Of a DNA stretch of 64,000 nucleotides, positions 28,168-44,177 are shown piece by piece. Position 1 is the stretch's first letter; each line of letters begins with the position of its first letter. A program made the position numbers and the translations under genes. The notes beneath the pieces are model-generated. The model was not told the DNA's origin. It saw only the letters and a list, made by a program, of their open reading frames with translations, and did not search any database. This DNA comes from Paecilomyces variotii (Eukaryota), in assembly GCA_004022145.1 (NCBI GenBank), contig RCNU01000002.1, one strand, 5' to 3'.

Positions 28168-29017
28168 AGCTGCGGTCGATGCCGCTAATGCGATTCCCTG
28201 CCTCGATTGGAGTCTGCTAAACTGCTGCGACTTTTGGCTGACCGGGGCTTTTGCTCCCCACTCCAGATCATCCTTTGCCGTCCGTTCCCAGAGTGACCCT
28301 CGCTCGCTCTCGCATCTCCATCAACCAAAAAGAATCTGCCTTCTCTTCTCGGCCGTCGGGGTTCTCTGTTCGACAAAAGAGAAAAAAAAGAAAAGAAAAA
28401 AATTCTCTCTCCTCTCCGTCGACCAGAAAGGGCCGTCCTCCCCCTTCGAGCCGCCTATTCTACCATCCTCCATCCCATCACCTATACTCCATTCGTCAAC
28501 CGGTCCTCCTTTCTCTCCTTCGCTATCCGTTTCACTTTGGTCATTCCCCGGAGGAACGACTGTTCCAAGGCTCATCGCGAGCGCGGGCGATAGGCTTCTC
28601 TCTTTCTTCTCTTGGTTCTCTTCCGTTCCCTTTCCTCCATACTCGGTGGGGGATATAGATTCATTCTCACCCTCGGTTCGACCGTTGATTGACAGCATCT
28701 CTTGCTGTGCAATCGATCAAGCCGCTCTTTTGCTTTCTCAATCCGAGTAGCAGTCCAGTAATTGATCCAAGGGAGGCTCTTTCCTGGGTAGTAAACGGTA
28801 TGTTGGAGACTCTCTGACGCTGTCTCTGCCTCACATTGTTTCGGGCGGAGTGGTGCCTGTCTCTTCCTCCCCCGCCAGTTGCTGTTTTGCAATTCGATCC
28901 CAAGCAAGCCATCAGATATATCATCGGTCTTTCTCCCGTGACTTTCTGTGGTAGAACTCTGGGGTCCCTTTTGGTCGTGGGCGGGACCCTCCTTCGCGCT
29001 GCTCTCATTCCACAGAG

Positions 29018-31279
29018 ATGTTCCGATACGCAAGGACCGAGACTGATGTTGCTCCTCTGAAAAGGTCATTTGCGCAGGTAGCAAATTCGACATTTTCCTG
29101 TCTCCCTGACTCCGGATGCGATCATCCATCCATGTTTTCGCATCCCTTCGAAGAGAGACATAACCCAGACAGGGTCACTCCCTCGAAGCGCAGGTCACGC
29201 TCCGCATCCCGGACCAGGATGCCTCTCCAGACCAGCGCGCCGTCCGTACCGGCGTCGTTTCCGTCGTTCATGTCGGTTTTCGGGGGAATATCGCACCTGC
29301 GTGTGGGAAGGAAGGAAGAAAGTATTGGTACACAGACGCTGGGGCGGCGACCGTCGAGGGTCACCGTCAACACATCGCGACATTTCCTCCCTTTCAAGCA
29401 CCGCGAGAGTGTCTCATCAGTCACGTCAGAATCCACAGACTCGTCACCAACCACAACGGTCTCGACCTTCGATTCACCCTCCGTCACAGACACGTCTCCC
29501 AGCTCGTCCCCGGAGTCACCTTCGTCCATGCCGTTCCACCCAAAGCTCGCATCATCGGAAAATGCCATCACACTCAAACGAACAGAGAGCTCTGTGCCGA
29601 CGAGCCAGTCCGACTCATCAGAGAATGCCCCCAAATCGACGCGAGGAGAGTCTCCCGGGAGACGAGCGCGGAACCTGAAGAACCTCTCACTCAAAATGCC
29701 CGCTCCTTCCCCGTCGCGACCTGCCATAGCCACTGCATCTGTGATGGAAACGGGTTCTCGTCATCTATCTGCTCCTCCCTCCCCAGTGCATCCAGTGAAA
29801 ACAGGTCGACGAAAGCCCGCCAACCTGACCATCCGTACCCCGGGCCTGGACAAGTCGTTCTCAAATGGCGGGATACCACCTCCGACGCCCTCTATGCGCC
29901 AGTCGCTGCGTCACATCGAGTCCTCGCCGTCTCTTCAGTCGGTCTTCTCCCCATCTACCGGGCCAGAGGGCGGAATGCAGCTGCCGCGACCCGCTACACA
30001 GCATGGTACTCGAGATATGCCTGGCACATGGGAGGAAGGTCTGTCGCCAATCCCTTCTGCGTCCACCTCGAAAGAGATCCTTCACGACCTGGCAGAGGAA
30101 GATGATCACCTTGATTCGAGAGAGTCCACCCGGAAGAATGAGCGTGGCTATCCGGATGGACCTACCTGCATTTACGACTCTGGTGTATACTTGTATCTCG
30201 AACCAACTGCGGAAGAAGCCTCGAAATTCGATGTTGTGGTCAACGTGGCCAAAGAAATCCCTAACCCGTTTACGAAACAACCAGAAAATAGTAATAGCAT
30301 AATGTCTACTTGGAGAAGTGCAGCGTCGGAGTCGAAGAGACAGTCGATGGTGGAACCGCAGACAGCATTCTCGGATATCTCCTTCAAATCGGCTTTGGAG
30401 TATCTGCCAGCCGAACCAGAGAGTGCGTCGACGCCAAAGACGGAACAGTCGAGACCGGAATACATCCATGTCGGCTGGGACCATAATTCAGAGATCCTTG
30501 ATGACCTCTACCCTCTGTGCGAACTCATTGACGATCGCATCTCCAAGGGAAAGAAGGTTCTCATACACTGTCAGCTTGGAGTTAGCCGATCGGCTTCCCT
30601 GATTATTGCGTACGGATTGTACAAAAACCGGGATCTGGATTTCAATGCAATGTACGGGATTGTGAAGTCACGGAGCTGTTGGGTTGGCCCCAACATGAGT
30701 CTCATTTACCAACTCACGGATTTCCGTTCTCGAGTCCTTCGTGGAGGTCCGTCGAAGCCAATCCCAGCAGAGTGGTTTATTCCCGATATTCCTTATCGGA
30801 AATCTGACCCCACACCTGCAGATTCGAGCACCACGCAGCCAAAGCCTGCTAGCAGTGAACGAGAGACAGGATCTCGTAGCGTTACTCAGGCTCCTCCCTC
30901 CGAGTTGGGCGTTCCCAAGTCCGACACTTCGCAGAAGCGGAACGTCTCTCCCCGACCGCTGCCATTCAGAGAGGGATACAAGGCGGCGGAGGCTTCGAAC
31001 AGCTGTTCCCAGCCGGAGACTACGCGGAGGGTGGAACTAGTTCGGTTTCCCACGGTGCAGAGGGACCTTGTCATGCAGGATGCGCCCGCTACATCTTCGG
31101 TATTGTCACCTCGGGAGGCAGACTTCATGCTCAATGGTTTCTCTCACGGAGTGACTGGGAACATGACAGTCAAACTCCCATCTGACTCCACCGGGCTTGG
31201 ACAGGAGGCGGTTGATCCTCGATCGCCTCCGCAAAGCAAAGAGCCCATCATAATGAGAAATATTGACGAATTCCTTTAA
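29018..31279 (+). CDS. pmp1: Dual-specificity MAP kinase phosphatase, Pmp1/Msg5 type (true start may be the downstream ATG at 29132 or 29219)
   Basis: Catalytic VLIHCQLGVSRSAS, general-acid loop YIHVGWDHNS, GPNMSLIYQL, docking-like RRARNLKNLSL and RRKPANLTIRTP, YPDGP motif. Confidence 0.88.
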   Translation: MFRYARTETDVAPLKRSFAQVANSTFSCLPDSGCDHPSMFSHPFEERHNPDRVTPSKRRSRSASRTRMPLQTSAPSVPASFPSFMSVFGGISHLRVGRKEESIGTQTLGRRPSRVTVNTSRHFLPFKHRESVSSVTSESTDSSPTTTVSTFDSPSVTDTSPSSSPESPSSMPFHPKLASSENAITLKRTESSVPTSQSDSSENAPKSTRGESPGRRARNLKNLSLKMPAPSPSRPAIATASVMETGSRHLSAPPSPVHPVKTGRRKPANLTIRTPGLDKSFSNGGIPPPTPSMRQSLRHIESSPSLQSVFSPSTGPEGGMQLPRPATQHGTRDMPGTWEEGLSPIPSASTSKEILHDLAEEDDHLDSRESTRKNERGYPDGPTCIYDSGVYLYLEPTAEEASKFDVVVNVAKEIPNPFTKQPENSNSIMSTWRSAASESKRQSMVEPQTAFSDISFKSALEYLPAEPESASTPKTEQSRPEYIHVGWDHNSEILDDLYPLCELIDDRISKGKKVLIHCQLGVSRSASLIIAYGLYKNRDLDFNAMYGIVKSRSCWVGPNMSLIYQLTDFRSRVLRGGPSKPIPAEWFIPDIPYRKSDPTPADSSTTQPKPASSERETGSRSVTQAPPSELGVPKSDTSQKRNVSPRPLPFREGYKAAEASNSCSQPETTRRVELVRFPTVQRDLVMQDAPATSSVLSPREADFMLNGFSHGVTGNMTVKLPSDSTGLGQEAVDPRSPPQSKEPIIMRNIDEFL

Positions 31280-33286: not shown

Positions 33287-34304
33287 ATGACTCGCTTACC
33301 TCTGCCTGTTCCTCCTCCAATCGACCCCTCCTATCACCCCAAAGCATCGATAACTACAGTCCCGGCGAGCACCCCGGTTGATTATATTGTTGCGATCCTT
33401 GAGCGCGATGGCGGGGTTATCCTCAAGGACCTCGTGTCCCAGGATGAGTTAGACACTATCGAAGAGGAAGTCCGACCTTGGAGCAACAAATCGCGCGTAC
33501 ATGCAGACAATGCTACTAACGGAGACGCATTTCATATAATCCCGCCTCAGACAACCCTCGTGCCTGGTCTGGTTGGCAAATCCAAGACAGTGGCCCAGAT
33601 ATGTGAACGGCCTGTTCTAGAAGGGCTGCGCCAGAAGATCCTCCTCGAGGAATACGTAGCTAACCGCGAGGGTCACGTTGAGCCCACCGCTATTAGCCCG
33701 TTACTGAGTCTGAGTATGTCAATGAATATCGGCTATGGAGCACCTCGACAGCTCCTGCACCGCGATGACACTATCCACGGGATTCGCCATCGGTGGAATG
33801 TCTTCCAGCCATGGAGCTTCAAGCATGTCTCTCAGTTTGCGTGTCTTATCGCTGGATGCGAAGTGACGCGGGAGAACGGGGCCACGATGTTCGTTCCAGG
33901 CAGTCATAAATGGGACGATGACCGATGGCCGACTGCAGATGATGTCAGCTTTGCAGGTATTGTATTCTCTCTAGTGTTCTCATTTCGAAGAATAAATTGC
34001 ACTGACAACCGAAGAAATGTCCGCTGGTTCTGCCTTGATATTTCTTGCCGCTGCCTACCACGGTGGTGGCCACAACTCGGTCCCAGGCTCAGTCCGAACG
34101 ATGCACAGCCTGTTCTTTGTTCGAGGAAATCTTCGCACGGAGGAGAATCAGTTCCTTGCTATTCCCAGGAGTAAAGTGCGAGAGATGAGCCCAAAGATGC
34201 TGGAACTGCTCGGGTACAAGAAGCCCACGGCGAATTTGGGCCTCGTCGACAATATCAGTCCGCATGAGGATATAGACGGAATATGGGAGAGGGCCATGCA
34301 GTAA
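33287..34304 (+). CDS. Phytanoyl-CoA dioxygenase (PhyH) family 2OG/Fe(II) dioxygenase (intron 33957-34014)
   Basis: ILERDGGVIL, QLLHRDD (HxD), ENGATMFVPGSHKW, spliced AEMSAGS, YHGGGHN (distal His), LRTEENQFL. Confidence 0.92.
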
Positions 34305-35460
34305 TACTTTTCCTGTGGATGATAAATGATGGCTTTCTGCCAGTCGACCAAAAAGGAGAACTCCTTGTTGGTCTGCCTGGATCTCTAACAATAAATTAAA
34401 CGATATTATAACGGTTGGTAGTCTGAATGCATCTATTAAGGGACTGGCAAGTGGATGAGTAGGAACAGTAAGTTGTAATCTATCCTCTATAACCTTACGG
34501 AGGACTTATGATACCTGTCTCTTAGGTCAACCATGGACAGTCACAAAACAAGAACCCTGCATCGGAAAAGGTCTCTATTCCCTTTTCTATCTATCAATAC
34601 TGAGGATAAATGATCTCGTTTTCGGTCGGCAAAGGAGCGGAATGTTCTATATCGTTCTACCGGGAATAAAGCGATGTATCGAATGATACTATTTAGCAAG
34701 GCAAGTATAACCGGTTAGGACCACCCTCGCCCTTTGTCGAGTTCAAAGTGGGAAAGCATGGTCATATAATTCGAATCTCATTACTAATTGCGAGATTGAT
34801 TACTTGACTCTATATCTATATTATCTCTATAGCATACAAAGAATCCTGATGCTTTGGGTCGAACAAGTGTCGACGGCAGAACCCCGCCCGCCGATAAGTG
34901 AGGCAGCTCGCGAGCGTCTCTACAAGATGGCTAAAGCCGTACGCATCACTCCGGCCAGCATTGGGAGGAGGGCACATCCCTATTACTCGTGCAGATCTTA
35001 TTTTACGAGGGATGGATAGAATAAGACCGACCCTTACTGCAAGCTCGAAGGAATGATATGGTTAGACTTGGCCGTGTCGTAAATCCGGATAGAGTTTAGC
35101 TTTGTATGGAGATGTTCCAGAAGGCGCTCGTTTTACGGTGAAGAACGGTCACTGCTCCCATTCCTCTTACATACTATTATTTTATTTCCTTTTATTTCCT
35201 ATCCACTCTCCTTTGGCCAATCTTCAATTATCACCACTGAGACCTGACAGTTCCGTGCTCACTAAAGAATATTTTGCCCTAACCTTGCTCCACTGGTACC
35301 CGCCGATAGTTACATGTTCTCAGAAGGCGTCGCTATGCAGTATTTTGCAAATTGACACATGGATTTCAGGATATATAGATAATCTTGGGTATCCTAGGTC
35401 TATTATTCTCTAACTGAGTTGTGTTGAAGGAATTTGGCATCAGCGTTACCTGTTTCCATC

Positions 35461-37013
35461 ATGCGTGGAACGAAGGTTGCCACACGTGCTTTGCGCTTCA
35501 ATGCCTCCAGGAAGTTCGCTACCGTTACTCGGCCTCAAGGGCCATCAGGCCTGAAAATAAATGCCGAGAGACTTTGGGAAACGTTACATGAGACATGCAA
35601 ATGGGGTGAAGCCCATCGATATGGAGAGTATGCGGCCACCTCCTTTTCAAGTTGACCTTTCTAATACGATGAGATCCTAGTGATCCAAAGGAGACGGGTA
35701 TGGCACGTCTGACCCTCAATGATGACGACGCACGCATTCGACGCTGGTTTGCCAATGAAGTGCAGAATCTAGGATGTTCCCTCTCCGTAGACCAAATGGG
35801 AAATATGTTCGCACGGCGATCTGGCCGGCTGAGGTCCCCAGCACCAATGACTGCTATGGGGAGTCATCTCGACACCCAGCCTCGTGGAGGCCGGTATGAT
35901 GGTATTCTAGGTGTGGTGGGGGCAATTGAGGTTTTGCGAACGATGAAAGAGAACAACTTCGAGACTTACTACGATGTAGGAGTTGTGAACTGGACTAAGT
36001 GCGTATTGTTTGTCATTTCATTCCTGTTGAGCTAATTGCTGAACCACTTTTAGTGAGGAAGGGGCTCGATTTCCAAAGTCCATGTGCTCTTCTGGTGTTT
36101 GGGCAGGCATCATTCCGATCCAAGACGCTTGGGACCTGCGCGATATTCACGATCAGAGCGTGACTCTTCGATCCGAACTCGAGAGACATGGCTACTTGGG
36201 CGATATCGCCTGCTCGAGCGATCCAAAGTCAGGATACCCACTTGGTGCTCACTTTGAATTGCATATTGAACAGGGGCCTATTCTTCAAGAGACTGGTCGA
36301 TCAATTGGTATCGTTCAGGGAGCCCAAGGATACCGATGGCTGACCTTGACTGTCAAAGGAAAAGATGCACACACCGGGACGACTCCCTTGAGCGCTCGCC
36401 AGGATCCATTACTTGCCGCCTCTAGGATGATAGCCGCTTCCAACGATATCGCAAAGCGGCACAATGCATTGGCCTCAACTGGTATTATTAAGGTGCCATC
36501 AAATGCATCTACCAATACAGTTGCCTCCGAGGTGACTTTCACTATTGATATCCGGCACCCACAGGATAGCACTGTACATGCTGTTCAGAAGGAATGTCTT
36601 GAAGCATTCTCTACCATTGCGTCCCAGGATGGAAAAGGCGTATCGTTTGAATGGACACTAGATACAGACTCTCCGGCCGTGCAATTCGATCGGAACTGTA
36701 TAGCTTCTATTCAAGCAGCTGCAGAATCCCTTGTCGGACCTGAAAAATCGATGCTCATGACCAGTGGCGCAGGCCATGATAGTGTCAACACCAGCAGGCA
36801 TTGCCCATCAGCAATGATCTTTGTTCCTTGTCGGGATGGTGTTAGTCACCATCCGACTGAGTATTGTACGCCGGAAGATTGGTGAGTATCTCCCCTGATA
36901 GTTTCTGTATGAGCTCAGATTTTAACGTAAACAGTGCTCTTGGTGCTCAAGCTTTGCTTGAATCAGTTGTGCACTATGATAAGTTCCGGGCGCAAAATGC
37001 AGAGAAATCTTAG
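35461..37013 (+). CDS. M20 Zn amidohydrolase of the beta-alanine synthase / N-carbamoyl-amino-acid hydrolase / allantoate amidohydrolase type (introns 35628-35680, 35999-36053, 36882-36934)
   Basis: INAERLW, GMARLTL, VDQMGN, MGSHLDTQPRGGRYDGILGV, WTNEEGARF, HFELHIEQGP, AHTGTTP, SGAGHDS, GVSHHPTE. Arg-rich, acid-free N-terminus resembles a mitochondrial presequence. Confidence 0.93.
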
Positions 37014-37480
37014 ATTTGTATAATTATTTACTCGATCATTCCGCAACAAAATGTTGTAGTTCCACATAAAAAATTAGAAAGAAGAAAAAACGATTCTAGT
37101 ATTAATGGCTTTAGCTATATTTTCAACTAGGCTATCAGGCAAGATTCAAGGAGAGACGACTGAATGGATGAGCGGACATTGCCGATGTCTAGAGAAGGCG
37201 CCAGGAATCTTATCAGCGATCACAACTTTCGTCATGAGCTACACATTCGAAGCGATTTTTAGTTATTTTTATAGTTCACTCAGGTATGTGAGTTCCCCAC
37301 CTTCTTTATAGTAGGCGATGTCGTCGGAAGGCGCTTTGTGGTCCTCAAAAATTCTGGTCAAATGAAGTCGCAGGTGAGTACTTACTCAGGGGTACAAAGA
37401 ACATGCTGATATCGTCGATCTAGAAACACTTCTTGTGATCAATTGCCCATGCGGTACGCCTGCATCGCAAAACATTCAAC

Positions 37481-39748
37481 ATGCCGTCCCGACGACCAAT
37501 TTACTTCAATCCCGCAGCGGCACATGAGCGCTACAGTGCTGCACGAAGCGACAGTCCGAGGCAATTTCATCGATCGCTTCCTAACTATGCGCCTACATCG
37601 CTCGTATCGCTCCCTGGTCTCGCGACAGAACTAGGTGTCCGCGCTGTCTACGTCAAAGATGAAAGTAATCGATTTACCTTGCCATCCTTCAAAGTTCTGG
37701 GTGCATCATGGGGATGCTTTCGTGCTGTCACGTCGTATCTGGGATTGTCATCGACAGTTGACTTGAATGAAGTCGCGAAGCAAGCTAAAGACAGCGCTAT
37801 TACTCTCGTGGCAGCAACGGAGGGAAACCATGGGCGTGCTGTCGCGTACATGGCGCAATTGTTGGGCATTATTAGTATTATTTTCGTCCCGGATCATATG
37901 GACGAAAAAACACGTTCTCTTATTGCTGCGCAGGGCGCTCAAGTCGTCGTCGTGCAAGGAGATTATGATAGAGCCGTGCAAGAGGCATCAAGCCACACAC
38001 AGAATACCAGCGGTGCATTGTTAATTCAGGACACAGCATTTGAGGGGTACGAGGATGTCCCTGCATGGATTGTTGAGGGATATTCGACCATGATGGTTGA
38101 AATTGAAGAACAGCTGGGAGAGCTCGGGCTGCGTAGCAGTGTGGTGGTTACTCCTGTGGGTGTTGGTAGCTTAGCACATGCTGTGTCGAGATACTGCAAG
38201 GCCCAAAACCCACCTGTTTCGGTTGTCACTGTCGAGCCTGACTCTGCACCATGTCTGATATCGAGTCTAGATGCCGGAAAACAGGTGACATTACAGACAT
38301 CCTCAACAATTATGGATGGTATGAACTGCGGGACTGTTTCATCTATTGCATGGCCATACTTGCAGCGCTTCGTTGACGCTTCTGTTACTGTATCATGCTA
38401 CGAGAGCCATTCCGCGGTGCAGTATCTTTCTTCACGATCGGTTCCTGCTGGTCCCTGTGGGGGCGCGTCATTGGCTGCGTTGCGGCATCTTGCTGCATCG
38501 GGTGAAGCTACGTCGCTTCTGAACGAAGGCTCGGTTGTGGTTCTTCTCAGCACTGAGGGTAAAAGGGACTATCCGGCCGTACGCGACGTATCTGTGGATG
38601 ATGCTGTGAGCTTGACTCAAGTTCTCACACAGATAAACTCTTCGAACCCTACATTGTCCTTGGCGGACGGAGTGGGTGAGAATCAGATTGTTGACTATCT
38701 GGTTGCATGGCTCCGCCATCGTGATATTGAGTATCACCGGGTTGAGACTGTCCCTGGTCGACCGTCAATTATAGGGATCCTGCGCGGCGCTGGAGGAGGA
38801 AAATCATTGATGTTCAACGGTCATCTCGATACAGTCAGCCTGTCCAGCTACGAAACGGATCCTCTGTCAGGATCTTTGGGAACCAAAAATGGCAAACAGG
38901 TTGTGTTTGGGAGAGGTAGTCTTGATATGAAGGGTGGCTTGTCTGCAGCGCTCGCCGCCTTAGCCACTATCAAGACTGGCGGAAGTACCCTTCGGGGCGA
39001 CATGATTGTCGCTGCTGTTTCGGACGAAGAAGATGCTTCCCAAGGAACAAGAGACATCCTGGCAGCTGGTTGGCGTGCTGACGCGGCGGTCATTCCAGAA
39101 CCCACGAGGGGTGTCATTGCAACCGCACATAAAGGCTTTTTGTGGGTAGAGGTCGACATCCTTGGAGTTGCTGCTCATGGATCGGATCCTTCAAAAGGCG
39201 AGGATGCTATCCTCCATACAGGATGGTTTCTACGAGCTCTAGAAGAGTACCAGCGCCAATTGCCTGTCGACGATGTCTTGGGACAAGCAACACTGCATTG
39301 CGCCCTGATCAGAGGCGGCGAAGAGCCATCTTCCTATCCGGGACTATGCACGCTCACGATCGAATTTCGTACAATCCCGTCTCAAACCGAACAGTCTATC
39401 TTGCACGACATCACTGAAATACTGAGAGGCATCTCACAGGAGAATGCTCGGTTTCGATTCGCTGAACCTCGCATCAAATTATCCCGTCCCCCACAGAAAC
39501 TTGCTGCTAGTCATCCTTTTACAGAACAGCTTGTGGCCTGCGCGTCCAGGGTTTTGGGAAGACGACCAGAGGTTCAAAGCGTTCCGTTTTGGTGCGATGC
39601 AGCCTTACTCAGCGAAGCTGGGATCCCATCAATTGTATATGGTCCTGTCGGTGAAGGCCTACACAGTAAAGAGGAATGGGTTGAGGTGGAGAGTCTCCAG
39701 GAAATGGAGAAGGTGTTTATACAATTAGTAGAAGAATTCTGCTGTTAG
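37481..39748 (+). CDS. Fusion protein: N-terminal PLP-dependent diaminopropionate ammonia-lyase (DpaL/YgeX-like) plus C-terminal M20 ArgE/DapE-type deacylase; intronless
   Basis: DAPAL motifs YAPTSL, VKDESNRFTLPSFKVLGA (PLP Lys), TEGNHGRAVA, IQDTAFEGY, PVGVGS, TIMDGMNCG, LLSTEG. M20 motifs FNGHLDTV, GRGSLDMKGG, SDEE, PEPT, AAHGS, GLHSKEEWV. Confidence 0.92.
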   Translation: MPSRRPIYFNPAAAHERYSAARSDSPRQFHRSLPNYAPTSLVSLPGLATELGVRAVYVKDESNRFTLPSFKVLGASWGCFRAVTSYLGLSSTVDLNEVAKQAKDSAITLVAATEGNHGRAVAYMAQLLGIISIIFVPDHMDEKTRSLIAAQGAQVVVVQGDYDRAVQEASSHTQNTSGALLIQDTAFEGYEDVPAWIVEGYSTMMVEIEEQLGELGLRSSVVVTPVGVGSLAHAVSRYCKAQNPPVSVVTVEPDSAPCLISSLDAGKQVTLQTSSTIMDGMNCGTVSSIAWPYLQRFVDASVTVSCYESHSAVQYLSSRSVPAGPCGGASLAALRHLAASGEATSLLNEGSVVVLLSTEGKRDYPAVRDVSVDDAVSLTQVLTQINSSNPTLSLADGVGENQIVDYLVAWLRHRDIEYHRVETVPGRPSIIGILRGAGGGKSLMFNGHLDTVSLSSYETDPLSGSLGTKNGKQVVFGRGSLDMKGGLSAALAALATIKTGGSTLRGDMIVAAVSDEEDASQGTRDILAAGWRADAAVIPEPTRGVIATAHKGFLWVEVDILGVAAHGSDPSKGEDAILHTGWFLRALEEYQRQLPVDDVLGQATLHCALIRGGEEPSSYPGLCTLTIEFRTIPSQTEQSILHDITEILRGISQENARFRFAEPRIKLSRPPQKLAASHPFTEQLVACASRVLGRRPEVQSVPFWCDAALLSEAGIPSIVYGPVGEGLHSKEEWVEVESLQEMEKVFIQLVEEFCC

Positions 39749-40150
39749 ACTTCGATGACATCGTGGAGATAGATGATCCATCAACCATCAAGTGCGGGTA
39801 ATTGTGCAATGTTATATATGGCTGGAAGAATGACAGTTAGATGATAAAACCTGTACATAAGAGACTTCTCAGAAATCGAAGATTTTTGTAATTTCTCTTG
39901 ACTTTTCGTGAATAAATGATCTCAGATCATCCAGTCGATGTTGCATGGATTGAGAGTGGGCTAACTTGTTCGGGTTAGGTCACATGAGTCAATGGTCTGC
40001 AAAAGTACCTGTCGTCGAGCAATAATTCTACATCAGATACCAGACCAACTGATCCTTCGCCGGCTTTATGATCTTTATGATCTCAAATTCTATCAAATTT
40101 CCACGGCTTTTTTCTGTATCTTTGTTGGTTCTCCGTAGGATCGGGTGGTA

Positions 40151-41865
40151 ATGGATCCGCCATTTCCCTTCGACCCTCCTCATCTGGAGGATTCAGTTGA
40201 TCCTAACATTTTATACAATTTCGATCAGTACTATTCAGATAGTACTGATCAGAACGGAGTGGTTCTACCCCAAACAGAACAAAGTCAGGGACCTTTCCAG
40301 CCCTTACCATTGGTAAGTGACGCTCCTCCCATGCCTTCAGTCGGGACTTCTCCGTTACCTCTATCCCAGGAGAGTCTGGTAAATGTATCTCAATGGCTAG
40401 AGGGCTCGTATCATCCTCCTGTGCCCTGTGCCCACTGCCGCAAGTATCGATTGCAATGTCTCATTATTCGGACCACAGAGGCCAATCCAAACCCAACCAT
40501 GGCCTGCTCCAGCTGTGTAGCCCTCTTCCGGGAGTGCAGTTTAGCACGAGGCGAGAAACGCCACCCATCACAATTTGAGACTCAGTTTCCAGTATTAGGC
40601 CATCTCCATGGCTTGCCGGAAGTCGAAGATGGAGTGAGTGAGCAACATTCTATAGCGAGAAATGATCTAACCATGAAATTTAGAATAACACGCCAGAGCT
40701 TCCGTTCGACAATGTCAATAATAAGGCGCGCAAAGACTCTAAACATTTTGTGAGAAAAGGTGCCCGAATTCTCAGGGAATGGTTCTATCAACACCAGGAA
40801 TATCCGTATCCCACGGAAGAGCAAAAATCGCACCTGTCACAAGAGACCGGTTTTTCACAGAGAAGAATTTCGACTTGGTTTGCCAATGCACGGCGGCGCC
40901 AGAAACAACAGCTCCGTTCATCAACGCTTCCATCAGTCTCTCGTTTCCGTTCGGGGTCACCCATGATTACCAGTACATTATCGACGATGACTCCTCTGGA
41001 TCGTTGGCGAGCGTCACCTCCAGAAGATGAACCTGTCTCTCAATCTGTTATTCAGAATGCCATTGCCTCGGCTGCAATGGAGACTGACGCCCCTTCTGAT
41101 ATTCTCCCGATGGATGGATCTATGGAGGATCTGTTCGATTTTGATGAAGCCTCGTCACATCTAGCTTCTTCCGCCTCAAGCTTCGAAAGCAGAGCATCGG
41201 AAACATCCGATAGCGTTTCTTCAGCATACCACTCCGCAGGAGACGGAGAGTTGCCGTTTCCGCTGCTTCCCAAAAGGACACGGCCACGGCAAAGACGGCC
41301 CAGACAGGTTCCTGCAGGAGACGACGGTCGATATCAATGCACGTTCTGCACACGAACATTCAAGAAGAAACATGATTGGTCTCGGCATGAAAAGAGCGTC
41401 CACCTTCCACTCGATTCGTGGATCTGCGCACTGGATCTCAGCCATATTCAACAGCTTACGGAATCTGAACCACGCGAATGCCCTTTCTGCGAGATCCCAT
41501 TCCCTCCTCCTACCCACTGGGAAGAACATGATTTCCATACCTGTGCTGCAAAGCCAGTAGCCGAGCGATCGTTCAGTCGAAGAGACCACCTGTGGCAACA
41601 TCTCCGCAAATTCCATGGATGCACGAAAAGCCCCGTTCCTGATCTGGATGCCTGGCGCGGCACGGGCGCGGATATCCAGAGCCGCTGTGGGTTTTGCAAG
41701 TGCACGTTGCCCACATGGAGTTCGCGCGTAGACCATTTAGCGGAGCATTTCAAAGATGGATCTCGTATGCCTCAGTGGGAAGGAGACTGGGGTCTAGATC
41801 CGATTGCATCAAGCATGTTGCGAAATGCAGTTCTGCCGTCCCAACGGTCCTTGACGAGCTCATAA
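40151..41865 (+). CDS. Transcription factor with Cys6-like cluster, TALE-type homeodomain and C2H2 fingers (intron 40634-40683)
   Basis: CAHCRKYRLQC...CSSCVALFREC; LREWFYQHQEYPYPTEEQK...ISTWFANARRR; YQCTFCTRTFKKKHDWSRHEKSVH plus further C/H fingers. Phase-0 GTGAGT...CTAAC...TAG intron joins the two ORFs. Confidence 0.9.
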
Positions 41866-42057
41866 GGTTACCATTCATCATAGTACCTAATCTACAAATC
41901 CTGGCGGACCACTGAATATTTCTTGTCTATGAGAATGAAACTCTGTACCATAGCGCATATAAATAAAATATAGATATCAATGTAACTAATATTAATGAAC
42001 CGATCAGTCGTTAAAATTGTCTTTTCCCATACAGGTTAGATCTATGGCTGTCGTACT

Positions 42058-42107
42058 CCTTTCCGTCGTCCGTGCGTTCGTCCCTCGGCGAGTCGACGGC
42101 GGAAAGG
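42058..42107. other. GC-rich inverted repeat (13-bp stem, 24-nt loop)
   Basis: CCTTTCCGTCGTC (42058-42070) pairs with GACGGCGGAAAGG (42095-42107), with one G-T/U wobble. Confidence 0.75.
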
Positions 42108-42129
42108 TGAAATTCAAAATGTCGAAATG

Positions 42130-42670
42130 TCGGAATTTCAACGACAATTCCTTCTCCCACATATTAACCCTACATTCGATTCCTGAATTTCAATCGATTC
42201 CAAAGTATTCCCAGTCTCATTTCACTCATAAATCATTCAAATTCCCGAATTTCATGGTGGTTAAAAAGTTATTCCAGAATTTCATTTTTGAAATTCAAAA
42301 ATCCTACAGGGGAATTTCAGCATTTCTCCACTGACATTTTCTTATCCTGCGTTAACCCTGCGATCAATTTTTGGATTTCATTCACTTCTATATTCTTCAT
42401 AATCTAATCTCACTAGAAAACTACTCAAATAGTTATAATTCATGGTGGTTAAAAAGATATCCCAGAATTTCACTTTTTGAAATTCAAAAATCCTAACCGT
42501 GAATTTCATCCTTTTCCCACTGAAATTCTCTTATCCTGCATTCATCCTTCATTCGTTTTTTGAATTTCATTCACTTCCATATTCTTCATGATCTAATTTC
42601 ACCAGATATCTATTCAAAAAGTTAAATTTCATCGTGGTCAAAAAGATATTCTAAAATGTCACTTTTTTCT
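42130..42670. repeat. AT-rich tandem repeat, ~188-bp period: two full copies plus degenerate/partial flanking copies
   Basis: Units start CATGGTGGTTAAAAAG at 42253 and 42441 and CATCGTGGTCAAAAAG at 42630. Both full units contain TTTTTGAAATTCAAAAATCCTA, TCTTATCCTGC and ATTTCATTCACTT. Confidence 0.9.
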
Positions 42671-42844: not shown

Positions 42845-44177
42845 ATGGCATCGGAAAATCCTCAGACGGAGGAGAGTCATCCTCAGCTTTTATCCCCGAG
42901 TGAATTGGGGACGAAGGAATAGTAAGTATCGGTCGTGATTTTTATTCTCTTTTTTTCTTCCCCGGTACCCCGCTATGCGACCCCTCAATTTCTGCGATAT
43001 CGATTTCGCCTTTCAGAAATTAGAATATATTATTTTCTACCAAAAAAAAATTAAATAAACTAACTCGTCCATTGGATACTCTAGCTGGGAAACCTTCTAT
43101 GACCGCAGCCTCTCCCACATCTCCTCGAAGCGCAAACCGGGCGCACACATAACTCCTACTCCCGAATACATCACCCAGAAAGCCCAGGGCAATAATGATT
43201 CTGACGATGAAGAGGAGGAAGTCGACGATGACGACGACCCCGGTACATCCTGGTTTTCCGAACACAACGCCCCCGAGAAAGTCCTCAAGTTCCTGACATC
43301 TGCGAAATTCCCGCTCTCGCCACGCAACACCCTACCGCGAAGCAGCACGTCCGCGACGAATAAGAAGAAAGGACTTGACAAGACGACGGAGCAGCCTAGT
43401 ATTCTGGATCTGGGCACTGGGAATGGGAGCATGTTGGCGCTATTGCGGAAACGTGGCGGGTTCAAGGGCTTGATGGTCGGTGTGGATTACTCGCCGCGAA
43501 GCGTGGAATTGGCGCGGGAACTGCAGCGGTTGAAGATCCATTCGGCGTATGAGTCGGATGATTACGATGATACCGATGAAGAGTCCTACACGTCTGATGC
43601 AGTGCAACCGCCGGAACCGGATGAGGAAGAGGATGATGTCGTCGTAGCGGATAATGAGAGCGCTACGGAGGCGATCCCTGTCCCTGATGAAGAAGAGAGC
43701 ACCGAGATTCGTTTCGAGGAATGGGATATTCTGGGCTCGACGGATCCCCTGACGAAAGAGGAAAAGAAAGCGCAAGGCGGAAAAGGTCTGGATTGGTTTC
43801 CCTATGAGAAAGGCGGGTTTGACATCGTTCTCGACAAGGGGACTTTCGATGCCGTGTCACTCTCGGATGAAGTCGTCGACGAAGGGGGCAAGGGCTCTGG
43901 CAAGATTGTCCAGAGACGAGTATGTGAGCGGTACCCGGACATTGCGACGCGGCTGGTCCGCAAAGGTGGATTCCTGGTTGTGACGAGCTGCAATTGGACG
44001 GAGGAGGAGCTCATACAGTGGTTTACCGGTCGCACAGGCGAAGAGGCAAAGGACGAGAATGGGGAAGATGGTCTGTACGTTTGGGGAAGAGTGGAGTATC
44101 CGAGGTTTCAGTTCGGAGGGCACGAAGGACAAGGAGTATGCACGGTTTGTTTTAGAAGGAGATGTGGGAAGGCTTGA
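42845..44177 (+). CDS. EFM4: Elongation factor protein-lysine N-methyltransferase EFM4/SEE1 (intron 42922-43084)
   Basis: Spliced PSELGTKEYWETFY, SWFSEH, ILDLGTGNGSML (SAM motif I), FDIVLDKGTFDAVSL, VTSCNWTEEEL, YPRFQFGGHEG. Confidence 0.93.

Follow-up and report, generated by a model that had tools for sequence, protein, structure and literature searches.

Within a 64,000-nucleotide stretch of contig RCNU01000002.1 from the Paecilomyces variotii assembly GCA_004022145.1 (hereafter the window, meaning that whole stretch), positions 33287-41865 exactly enclose four co-oriented plus-strand genes, and three of these form a module that is conserved across Eurotiales and Xylona heveae: a carbamoylase of the M20 family, a fusion of a putative 2,3-diaminopropionate ammonia-lyase (DAPAL) with a second M20 hydrolase (DAPAL::M20), and a homeobox transcription factor (TF). 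We regard as solid both the linkage of the three genes and the history of the fusion, from a bacterial operon to a single fungal gene. With a probability that we place at about one in two, we propose that this TF-linked module unblocks ureido- and acyl-substituted forms of 2,3-diaminopropionate (DAP) and converts DAP to pyruvate and ammonia. If true, it would give eukaryotes their first described route for the breakdown of DAP and its blocked forms, among them toxicologically interesting non-protein amino acids from plants and cyanobacteria (albizziine, beta-N-oxalyl-2,3-diaminopropionate (beta-ODAP) and possibly beta-N-methylamino-L-alanine (BMAA)). The chemistry of bacterial DAPAL and M20 enzymes is known; new here are its fused form, its presence in fungi, and its association with a PYD3-type enzyme and a homeobox regulator. 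Literature searches, with supplementary tables outside their scope, returned no described fungal pathway of DAP or albizziine catabolism and no study of the fused gene, in agreement with a preliminary description of this DNA whose author knew of no characterised fungal pathway of this form.

Conservation of a three-gene module

Gene models were obtained with a script testing GT..AG boundaries, in agreement with spliced RNA contigs, and families were assigned by Pfam and NCBIfam scans of open frames. The three genes of the module are laid out as follows:

35461-35627, 35681-35998, 36054-36881 and 36935-37013, plus strand: carbamoylase, 463 aa
35628-35680, 35999-36053 and 36882-36934, plus strand: the three introns of the carbamoylase
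37481-39748, plus strand: DAPAL::M20 fusion, 755 aa, intronless
40151-40633 and 40684-41865, plus strand: TF, 554 aa, with one intron at 40634-40683

The closest named proteins belong to P. variotii itself, with 99% identity to carbamoylase exon 3 and 96% to the whole fusion, and 459 of the 463 residues of the complete carbamoylase model are identical to those of the P. variotii protein P0123; the fourth gene, an upstream dioxygenase of the PhyH family, is matched at 100% identity throughout the 221 N-terminal residues queried. RNA contigs, which report presence and not expression level, indicate that all four genes are transcribed, confirm the introns, and include all four in one culture run. 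Spliced contigs cover PhyH, the carbamoylase (in three runs, with a poly-A tail near 37035) and the TF (with a poly-A tail near 41986), and an unspliced contig at the fusion spans 37911-39895. An unspliced contig of 8445 nt, spanning 34340-42305 and assembled from a food-fermentation metatranscriptome (X2), was rejected as RNA evidence: it carries 251 differences, is DNA-like, and represents DNA of a related strain.

Linkage in other fungi was read indirectly, from merged gene models and from consecutive locus tags or accession numbers in protein collections; many species are not comparable because their listed proteins come from different assemblies. In 11 other species, drawn from Aspergillus, Penicillium, Talaromyces and Xylona (class Xylonomycetes, represented by Xylona heveae), the carbamoylase is found no more than three genes from the fusion, and throughout this range both the adjacency and the co-orientation of the two genes persist. 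Tags or accessions are consecutive in seven species, and the individual cases are:

P. hispanicum: carbamoylase and fusion consecutive, N7459_001483/84
P. capsulatum: carbamoylase and fusion consecutive, N7492_009437/36
A. hiratsukae: carbamoylase and fusion consecutive, CNMCM5793_006032/31
A. nanangensis: carbamoylase and fusion consecutive, FE257_012211/10
A. melleus: carbamoylase and fusion consecutive, N8T08_002237/36
Xylona heveae: carbamoylase and fusion consecutive, KZF24825/24
P. macrosclerotiorum: carbamoylase N7462_007541 and TF N7462_007543, with the accession of the fusion directly before that of the TF
T. atroroseus P0093: carbamoylase and fusion merged in one model, 74% identical to carbamoylase exon 3
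A. flavus NRRL3357 P0113: carbamoylase and fusion merged in one model
A. oryzae RIB40 and A. arachidicola: carbamoylase and fusion 2-3 accession numbers apart

The TF adjoins the fusion or is merged with it in six other species, being consecutive in P. hispanicum, P. macrosclerotiorum, A. nanangensis (FE257_012209/10) and Rasamsonia byssochlamydoides (VTN77DRAFT_8341/42) and merged in A. pseudoustus P0120 and A. homomorphus P0369. Ten TF representatives were examined; five come from species in which the position of the fusion is known, and in all five the two are adjacent or merged. The preliminary description had proposed a cluster of all four tandem genes. The four genes are indeed there, as the models and RNA contigs agree, and the carbamoylase-fusion and fusion-TF parts of that proposal stand; its inclusion of PhyH does not. 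The conserved unit is the carbamoylase-fusion-TF trio and not the four genes, because PhyH is unlinked to the fusion in each of the five species in which this could be tested.

In section Flavi (A. arachidicola PIG80978-PIG80981; A. oryzae BAE56077-BAE56079), a gene for an ERG3-like sterol-desaturase / fatty-acid-hydroxylase apparently lies between the carbamoylase and the fusion, and ERG3-like proteins, oddly, also appear in the member list of the 90% cluster to which the fusion belongs.

Predicted activities of the module proteins

Profile scores uphold the enzyme families assigned in the preliminary description (PhyH, carbamoylase, DAPAL::M20). Exon 3 of the carbamoylase alone reaches 208.4 bits against TIGR01879 (cut-off 204), and the best solved relative of the protein is the beta-alanine synthase of S. 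(Lachancea) kluyveri (SkbAS, 1r43/1r3n), matched over its full length at 366 bits. Of the metal, catalytic and substrate-anchoring residues of SkbAS, PMC12169670 names 11, and in the alignment to 1r43 the carbamoylase keeps every one (H114, D125, E159, E160, H226, Q229, H262, N309, R322, H397 and H421). On these scores and residues we predict that the gene encodes a bona fide N-carbamoyl-beta-amino-acid amidohydrolase, a PYD3-like M20 enzyme. Albizziine is 2-amino-3-ureidopropionate, that is, beta-ureidopropionate bearing a 2-amino group, and sequence alone cannot separate a preference for beta-ureidopropionate from a preference for this derivative. What distinguishes the window carbamoylase from the PYD3 of S. 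kluyveri is its fixed position beside a predicted DAP-degrading fusion and a TF. The first ~26 residues of the carbamoylase (35461-35540) include many Arg, Lys, Ser and Thr but no acidic residue, and by eye they resemble a mitochondrial presequence.

The fusion consists of an N-terminal pyridoxal phosphate (PLP) domain (~residues 1-375) and a C-terminal M20 domain (~385-755). The PLP half passes the DAPAL equivalog model NF006058 (295.5 bits against 276) but stays below the other DAPAL models, TIGR03528 of the YgeX type (226 against 532) and TIGR01747 (210 against 274). Its best solved relatives are two characterised DAPALs, 4d9g from E. coli (E 3e-50) and 5ygr (E 2e-45), and threonine/serine dehydratases trail far behind (E 8e-20 and weaker). 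The M20 half scores 219.6 bits against the ArgE/DapE-type model TIGR01910 (cut-off 217.6) and falls below the YgeY models NF009555 (124 against 321) and TIGR03526 (92 against 321.5).

The potential catalytic residues of E. coli DAPAL given in PMC4000059 are Lys77 and Asp120. The PLP lysine, Lys77, aligns to K71 of the fusion, which is invariant in 20/20 fungal fusions and is Lys in every bacterial relative with a residue in this column, and E. coli Asp189 aligns to D184, equally invariant across the 20 fungal orthologues. In the M20 half, H448, D450, D482, E516, E517, E540 and H728, which from general knowledge of M20 enzymes we take to be the metal and catalytic set, are invariant in 20/20 fungal orthologues. 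With catalytic residues conserved in each, apart from the position of E. coli Asp120 considered below, all three enzyme domains of the module look active. Public annotations of the fused gene read 'threonine dehydratase', 'peptidase M20' or 'succinyl-diaminopimelate desuccinylase', and these database labels need correcting.

The third protein is a TALE homeobox factor (Pfam Homeobox_KN, E 3e-19) whose C-terminal C2H2 fingers give matches below Pfam cut-offs only. A regular expression finds the motif CX2CX6CX15CX2CX6C at residues 93-129, and Pfam Zn_clus gives no match on exon 1 of the TF; the reading of this segment as a putative Zn cluster follows from Cys spacing only. A Zn(2)C6-like region, a homeobox and C2H2 fingers are included in the domain layout that PMC7142095 gives for A. 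nidulans HbxE, and the window TF shares its layout with the class of A. nidulans HbxE and A. flavus Hbx3, 5 and 6 (PMC7142095, PMC5666362). The likeness is one of layout alone, and the parts of this literature that were examined report no metabolic role for the class. As described in PMC5666362, A. flavus grew and developed almost or entirely normally after deletion of seven of its eight homeobox genes, hbx1 being the exception, an outcome compatible with a metabolic role for such TFs without demonstrating one. The TF is probably the regulator of the module, and the module would then give a role open to experiment to a class of fungal homeobox/C2H2 factors that lacks a developmental deletion phenotype.

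Descent of the fusion from a bacterial operon pair

Metagenome and prokaryote genome contigs yielded 160 loci on scanning, and hidden Markov models (HMMs) of both fusion halves showed the two halves adjacent in 39. Thirty-seven of these are bacterial, with two separate genes that often overlap by a few bases (DAPAL first in 25, M20 first in 12), and two (L001 and L002) carry both halves in a single open reading frame (ORF), each on a eukaryote-like contig. No fused form was seen among the 37 bacterial loci. Apparent bacterial fusions at L133 (a 751-aa ORF) and L114 were rejected as artefacts: DAPAL is encoded in a different frame, and the long ORF results from an upstream frame that stays open in the high-GC DNA. 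The ESM Atlas contains one fused cluster, whose 61 members are all from Eukaryota, with Ascomycota as the commonest phylum. Searched for fungal synteny, the metagenome contigs yielded distant relatives only, and L001 and L002 were without the other module genes.

DAPAL-M20 pairs are widespread in bacteria (Micrococcaceae, Mesorhizobium, Bryobacterales and others) and share 40-46% identity with both fungal halves, from which they differ in being two genes in 37/37 loci. Quick maximum-likelihood trees, midpoint-rooted, with SH-aLRT (approximate likelihood-ratio test) support only and drawn from loci pre-selected for similarity to the fungal protein, were computed for each half. In the DAPAL tree (62 rows) the sister group of the fungal clade is one in which every named member belongs to Actinomycetota (joint support 98), and in the M20 tree (69 rows, with 23 of the 69 unpaired bacterial rows kept) the fungal clade falls within a 22-row clade containing actinobacterial DAPAL-first pairs (support 95). 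The two halves tell one story, because both trees place the fungal clade beside Actinomycetota members with DAPAL-first gene order. The trees argue that the fusion descends from a bacterial two-gene DAPAL-M20 operon pair, and the source pair was probably of actinobacterial type. The fungal domains score below the YgeX-type and YgeY cut-offs, and E. coli ygeX/ygeY are therefore a functional analogue and not the nearest relative. The parallel to ygeX/ygeY drawn in the preliminary description is consequently retained for its chemical precedent, set out below, and given up as a statement of kinship, the nearest relative being another DAPAL-M20 pair.

The gene neighbourhood of the bacterial pair was scanned at ten loci of Micrococcaceae. 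A RidA-family gene follows the pair in eight of them, and all ten have a LysR regulator, just downstream in nine and upstream in one; transporters of the amino-acid permease, MFS or Na:alanine type occur near the pair. Rid-family proteins are enamine/imine deaminases, and RidA is an expected companion of any enzyme releasing 2-aminoacrylate. Six of the ten loci have an M24 creatinase/prolidase-like hydrolase and five an EutA-like protein, the latter scoring 162 bits against TIGR02990, below its cut-off of 318. The layout of M24, EutA-like, PLP and deacylase genes resembles that of ectoine utilisation clusters, and by analogy one might speculate that the bacterial substrate is a ring compound opened to N-acyl-DAP.

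Of 25 bacterial loci scanned, just one, L094 of Arthrobacter sp. SW1, has a carbamoylase-family gene close to the pair; this gene stands ~2.9 kb away and is 36% identical to the fungal carbamoylase. Because of this ratio, we regard the pairing with a carbamoylase as a fungal innovation that was not inherited with the operon. The locus would illustrate neatly how two genes of a bacterial operon became a single fused fungal gene that was then wired to a native enzyme and a regulator.

In Pseudarthrobacter, a unit of M24, EutA-like, DAPAL, M20, RidA and LysR genes is flanked by transposase genes at one locus (L108) and lies on a plasmid at another (L123), which suggests a mobile catabolic island. 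On a metagenome contig (L049:4588-8294), an M20 gene of the carbamoylase family, with 30-33% identity to its fungal counterpart, stands directly beside an ArgE/DapE-type M20 gene; in a search with the DAPAL HMM over translated ORFs of at least 150 aa, L049 was neither in the best 60 rows nor among loci of at least 150 bits.

Proposed pathway and alternative explanations

In the pathway that we propose, blocked forms of DAP would first be unblocked. The carbamoylase would remove a 3-ureido group on the beta-carbon, as in albizziine or 2,3-diureidopropionate, and the M20 domain would remove an N-alpha acyl or carbamoyl group, freeing the alpha-amino group needed by the PLP domain, which would then eliminate both amino groups of DAP to give pyruvate and 2 NH3. 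Fusion of deacylase and lyase would keep free DAP low, and the TF would control the set. Precedent for this chemistry is found in PMC12507026, which reports that E. coli YgeY (M20) and YgeX (DAPAL) turn albizziin into pyruvate in vitro and that the bacterial reductive urate pathway unblocks 2,3-diureidopropionate stepwise to DAP. The coupling of DAPAL with M20 in either gene order among the 37 bacterial loci also speaks for the proposal, as do the linkage of the trio in other fungi, the conserved active sites, the transcription of all three genes, the RidA genes at the Micrococcaceae loci and the room that the A. flavus deletions leave for a metabolic TF.

A more specific version can be advanced only tentatively, and we consider it unlikely as it stands: the module may be a dedicated, TF-controlled Eurotiales-type pathway for ureido-DAPs (albizziine, 2,3-diureidopropionate), an aerobic eukaryotic equivalent of the lower half of the recently described 2,8-dioxopurine urate pathway of bacteria, assembled from a fused actinobacterial DAPAL-M20 operon, a PYD3-type carbamoylase native to the fungus and a regulator of HbxE type that is metabolic and not developmental. 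The likeness to the E. coli reductive urate (2,8-dioxopurine) system lies in the pairing of a PLP-dependent DAPAL with an M20 hydrolase of the ArgE/DapE superfamily, whereas in the fungus the two domains are fused and score below the family cut-offs, and the host is aerobic; in the window, no homologues of XdhD, YgfK, SsnA or HyuA accompany the fungal genes.

Several observations count against the proposed DAP pathway. Adjacency of locus tags gives gene order and not co-regulation or function, and P. lecythidis and A. mulundensis have their best carbamoylase match and the fusion on separate contigs. The upstream regions of the carbamoylase, fusion and TF have no common 8-mer or longer, their shared 7-mers being at shuffle level, and no transporter is encoded in the 64-kb window. 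The carbamoylase, with every residue of an ordinary beta-alanine synthase, may simply be PYD3: its relatives are widespread in fungi (7664 matches), and those of Sordariomycetes are 65-68% identical, with no fusion among the best 120 matches. To these points are added the scarcity of carbamoylase genes at the bacterial loci and the variability of one active-site position of the PLP domain, considered below.

Under the strongest alternative, the genes are neighbours by descent and not by function. The carbamoylase would be an ordinary PYD3 of pyrimidine or dihydrouracil breakdown, the horizontally acquired DAPAL::M20 would have landed beside it and would work alone on N-acyl-DAP or on a DAP-containing peptide, and the TF would serve one of them or neither. 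The complete set of 11 beta-alanine-synthase residues, the 366 bits to the yeast enzyme, the wide distribution of carbamoylase orthologues, the lack of a common promoter motif, and the 24 of 25 scanned bacterial loci in which the pair stands without a carbamoylase speak for such an arrangement. Against it, carbamoylase and fusion keep their adjacency and co-orientation in 11 other species while PhyH, the next gene upstream, is not kept, and the Arthrobacter locus L094 has independently brought a carbamoylase-family gene close to the pair. We judge this explanation unlikely, though it is the most serious competitor of the DAP pathway.

Less probable still is that the PLP domain acts on another beta-substituted amino acid and not on DAP, a candidate being a ring-opened cyclic amidine or ureide handled in the style of ectoine utilisation. 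The failure of the fungal PLP domain on two of the three DAPAL models (TIGR03528, TIGR01747) fits this explanation, as does the M24 hydrolase and EutA-like gene in the nearest bacterial operons, which recall ectoine eut/doe clusters. It is also in line with the residue at the position of E. coli Asp120, which is Glu in the window fusion and varies across the 20 fungal fusions (E in 14, M in 3, K in 3). We take Asp120 of the E. coli enzyme to serve the reaction of the D-isomer, and the departure from it may reflect either L-specificity or a shifted substrate. Set against this are the score above the NF006058 equivalog cut-off and the solved relatives, where characterised DAPALs come well ahead of threonine/serine dehydratases; we accordingly retain DAP as the favoured substrate.

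The PhyH dioxygenase and flanking features

The gene upstream of the module and the flanks on either side of the four genes are:

33287-33956 and 34015-34304, plus strand: PhyH dioxygenase, 319 aa, with one intron at 33957-34014
28955-31279: upstream flank, dual-specificity phosphatase, with yeast YIL113W and MAPK phosphatases as its best solved relatives
43059-44177: downstream flank, class I methyltransferase by Pfam

The first gene matches PF05721 (E 2e-16, 61.1 bits against a cut-off of 22), its H-x-D...H iron triad was seen by eye only, and its best PDB relatives over ~210 residues are the swainsonine dioxygenases SwnH1 (9osa, E 1e-55) and SwnH2 (9otb, E 4e-51). By family and nearest relatives it is predicted to be a PhyH-family Fe(II)/2-oxoglutarate dioxygenase closest to SwnH1/SwnH2. 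It differs from these in its setting, since no Pfam match typical of a swnK-like nonribosomal peptide synthetase-polyketide synthase occurs among the window ORFs (other swn genes were not looked for) and close PhyH orthologues are patchy.

Orthologues at 60% identity or more do not track the distribution of the fusion. Where position could be compared, A. nanangensis, A. melleus and A. homomorphus have the PhyH orthologue and the fusion on separate contigs, and in X. heveae the two are separated by 146 accession numbers. In A. flavus NRRL3357 the genes (PhyH G4B84_007310, fusion G4B84_001071) lie ~6,200 locus tags apart, and the longest contig listed is of 4.81 Mb with the PhyH entry and of 6.51 Mb with the fusion entry; they are evidently on different chromosomes. 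PhyH is a lineage-specific neighbour outside the conserved module.

That the dioxygenase might nevertheless act upstream on a ring- or alkyl-substituted precursor feeding the hydrolases, as the preliminary description had suggested, draws on its position 1.2 kb upstream on the same strand, its transcription and a spliced RNA contig that partly bridges the gap to the carbamoylase leader, but we consider this very improbable given the absent linkage, the patchy orthologues and nearest characterised relatives that hydroxylate an indolizidine alkaloid.

The contig in question, 34361-35089, is a plus-strand spliced RNA with an intron at 34468-34525 (GT..AG) and occupies much of the interval that separates PhyH from the carbamoylase. 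The contig overlaps the long 5' leader of the carbamoylase, which begins at or before 35042, and may represent part of a long leader, read-through transcription or an independent non-coding RNA. In the public P. variotii model of PhyH (P0244, 331 aa) the C-terminus is drawn from this same region, whereas the RNA contig of PhyH supports the 319-aa protein.

The solved relatives of the upstream phosphatase agree with the MAPK phosphatase of the preliminary description, and a PDB search returned no relative for the downstream methyltransferase, which that description had called EFM4. Searches of the region for tRNA genes and against Rfam returned no match, including for a 64-nt element just past the PhyH stop codon (34327-34390) that contains an imperfect 13-bp hairpin. 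No second copy of the 42-nt core of this element occurs within the window at up to 3 mismatches. The element has very high depth in RNA runs, and in all four runs other contigs share it and continue into unrelated sequence; it looks like a dispersed, transcribed palindromic repeat.

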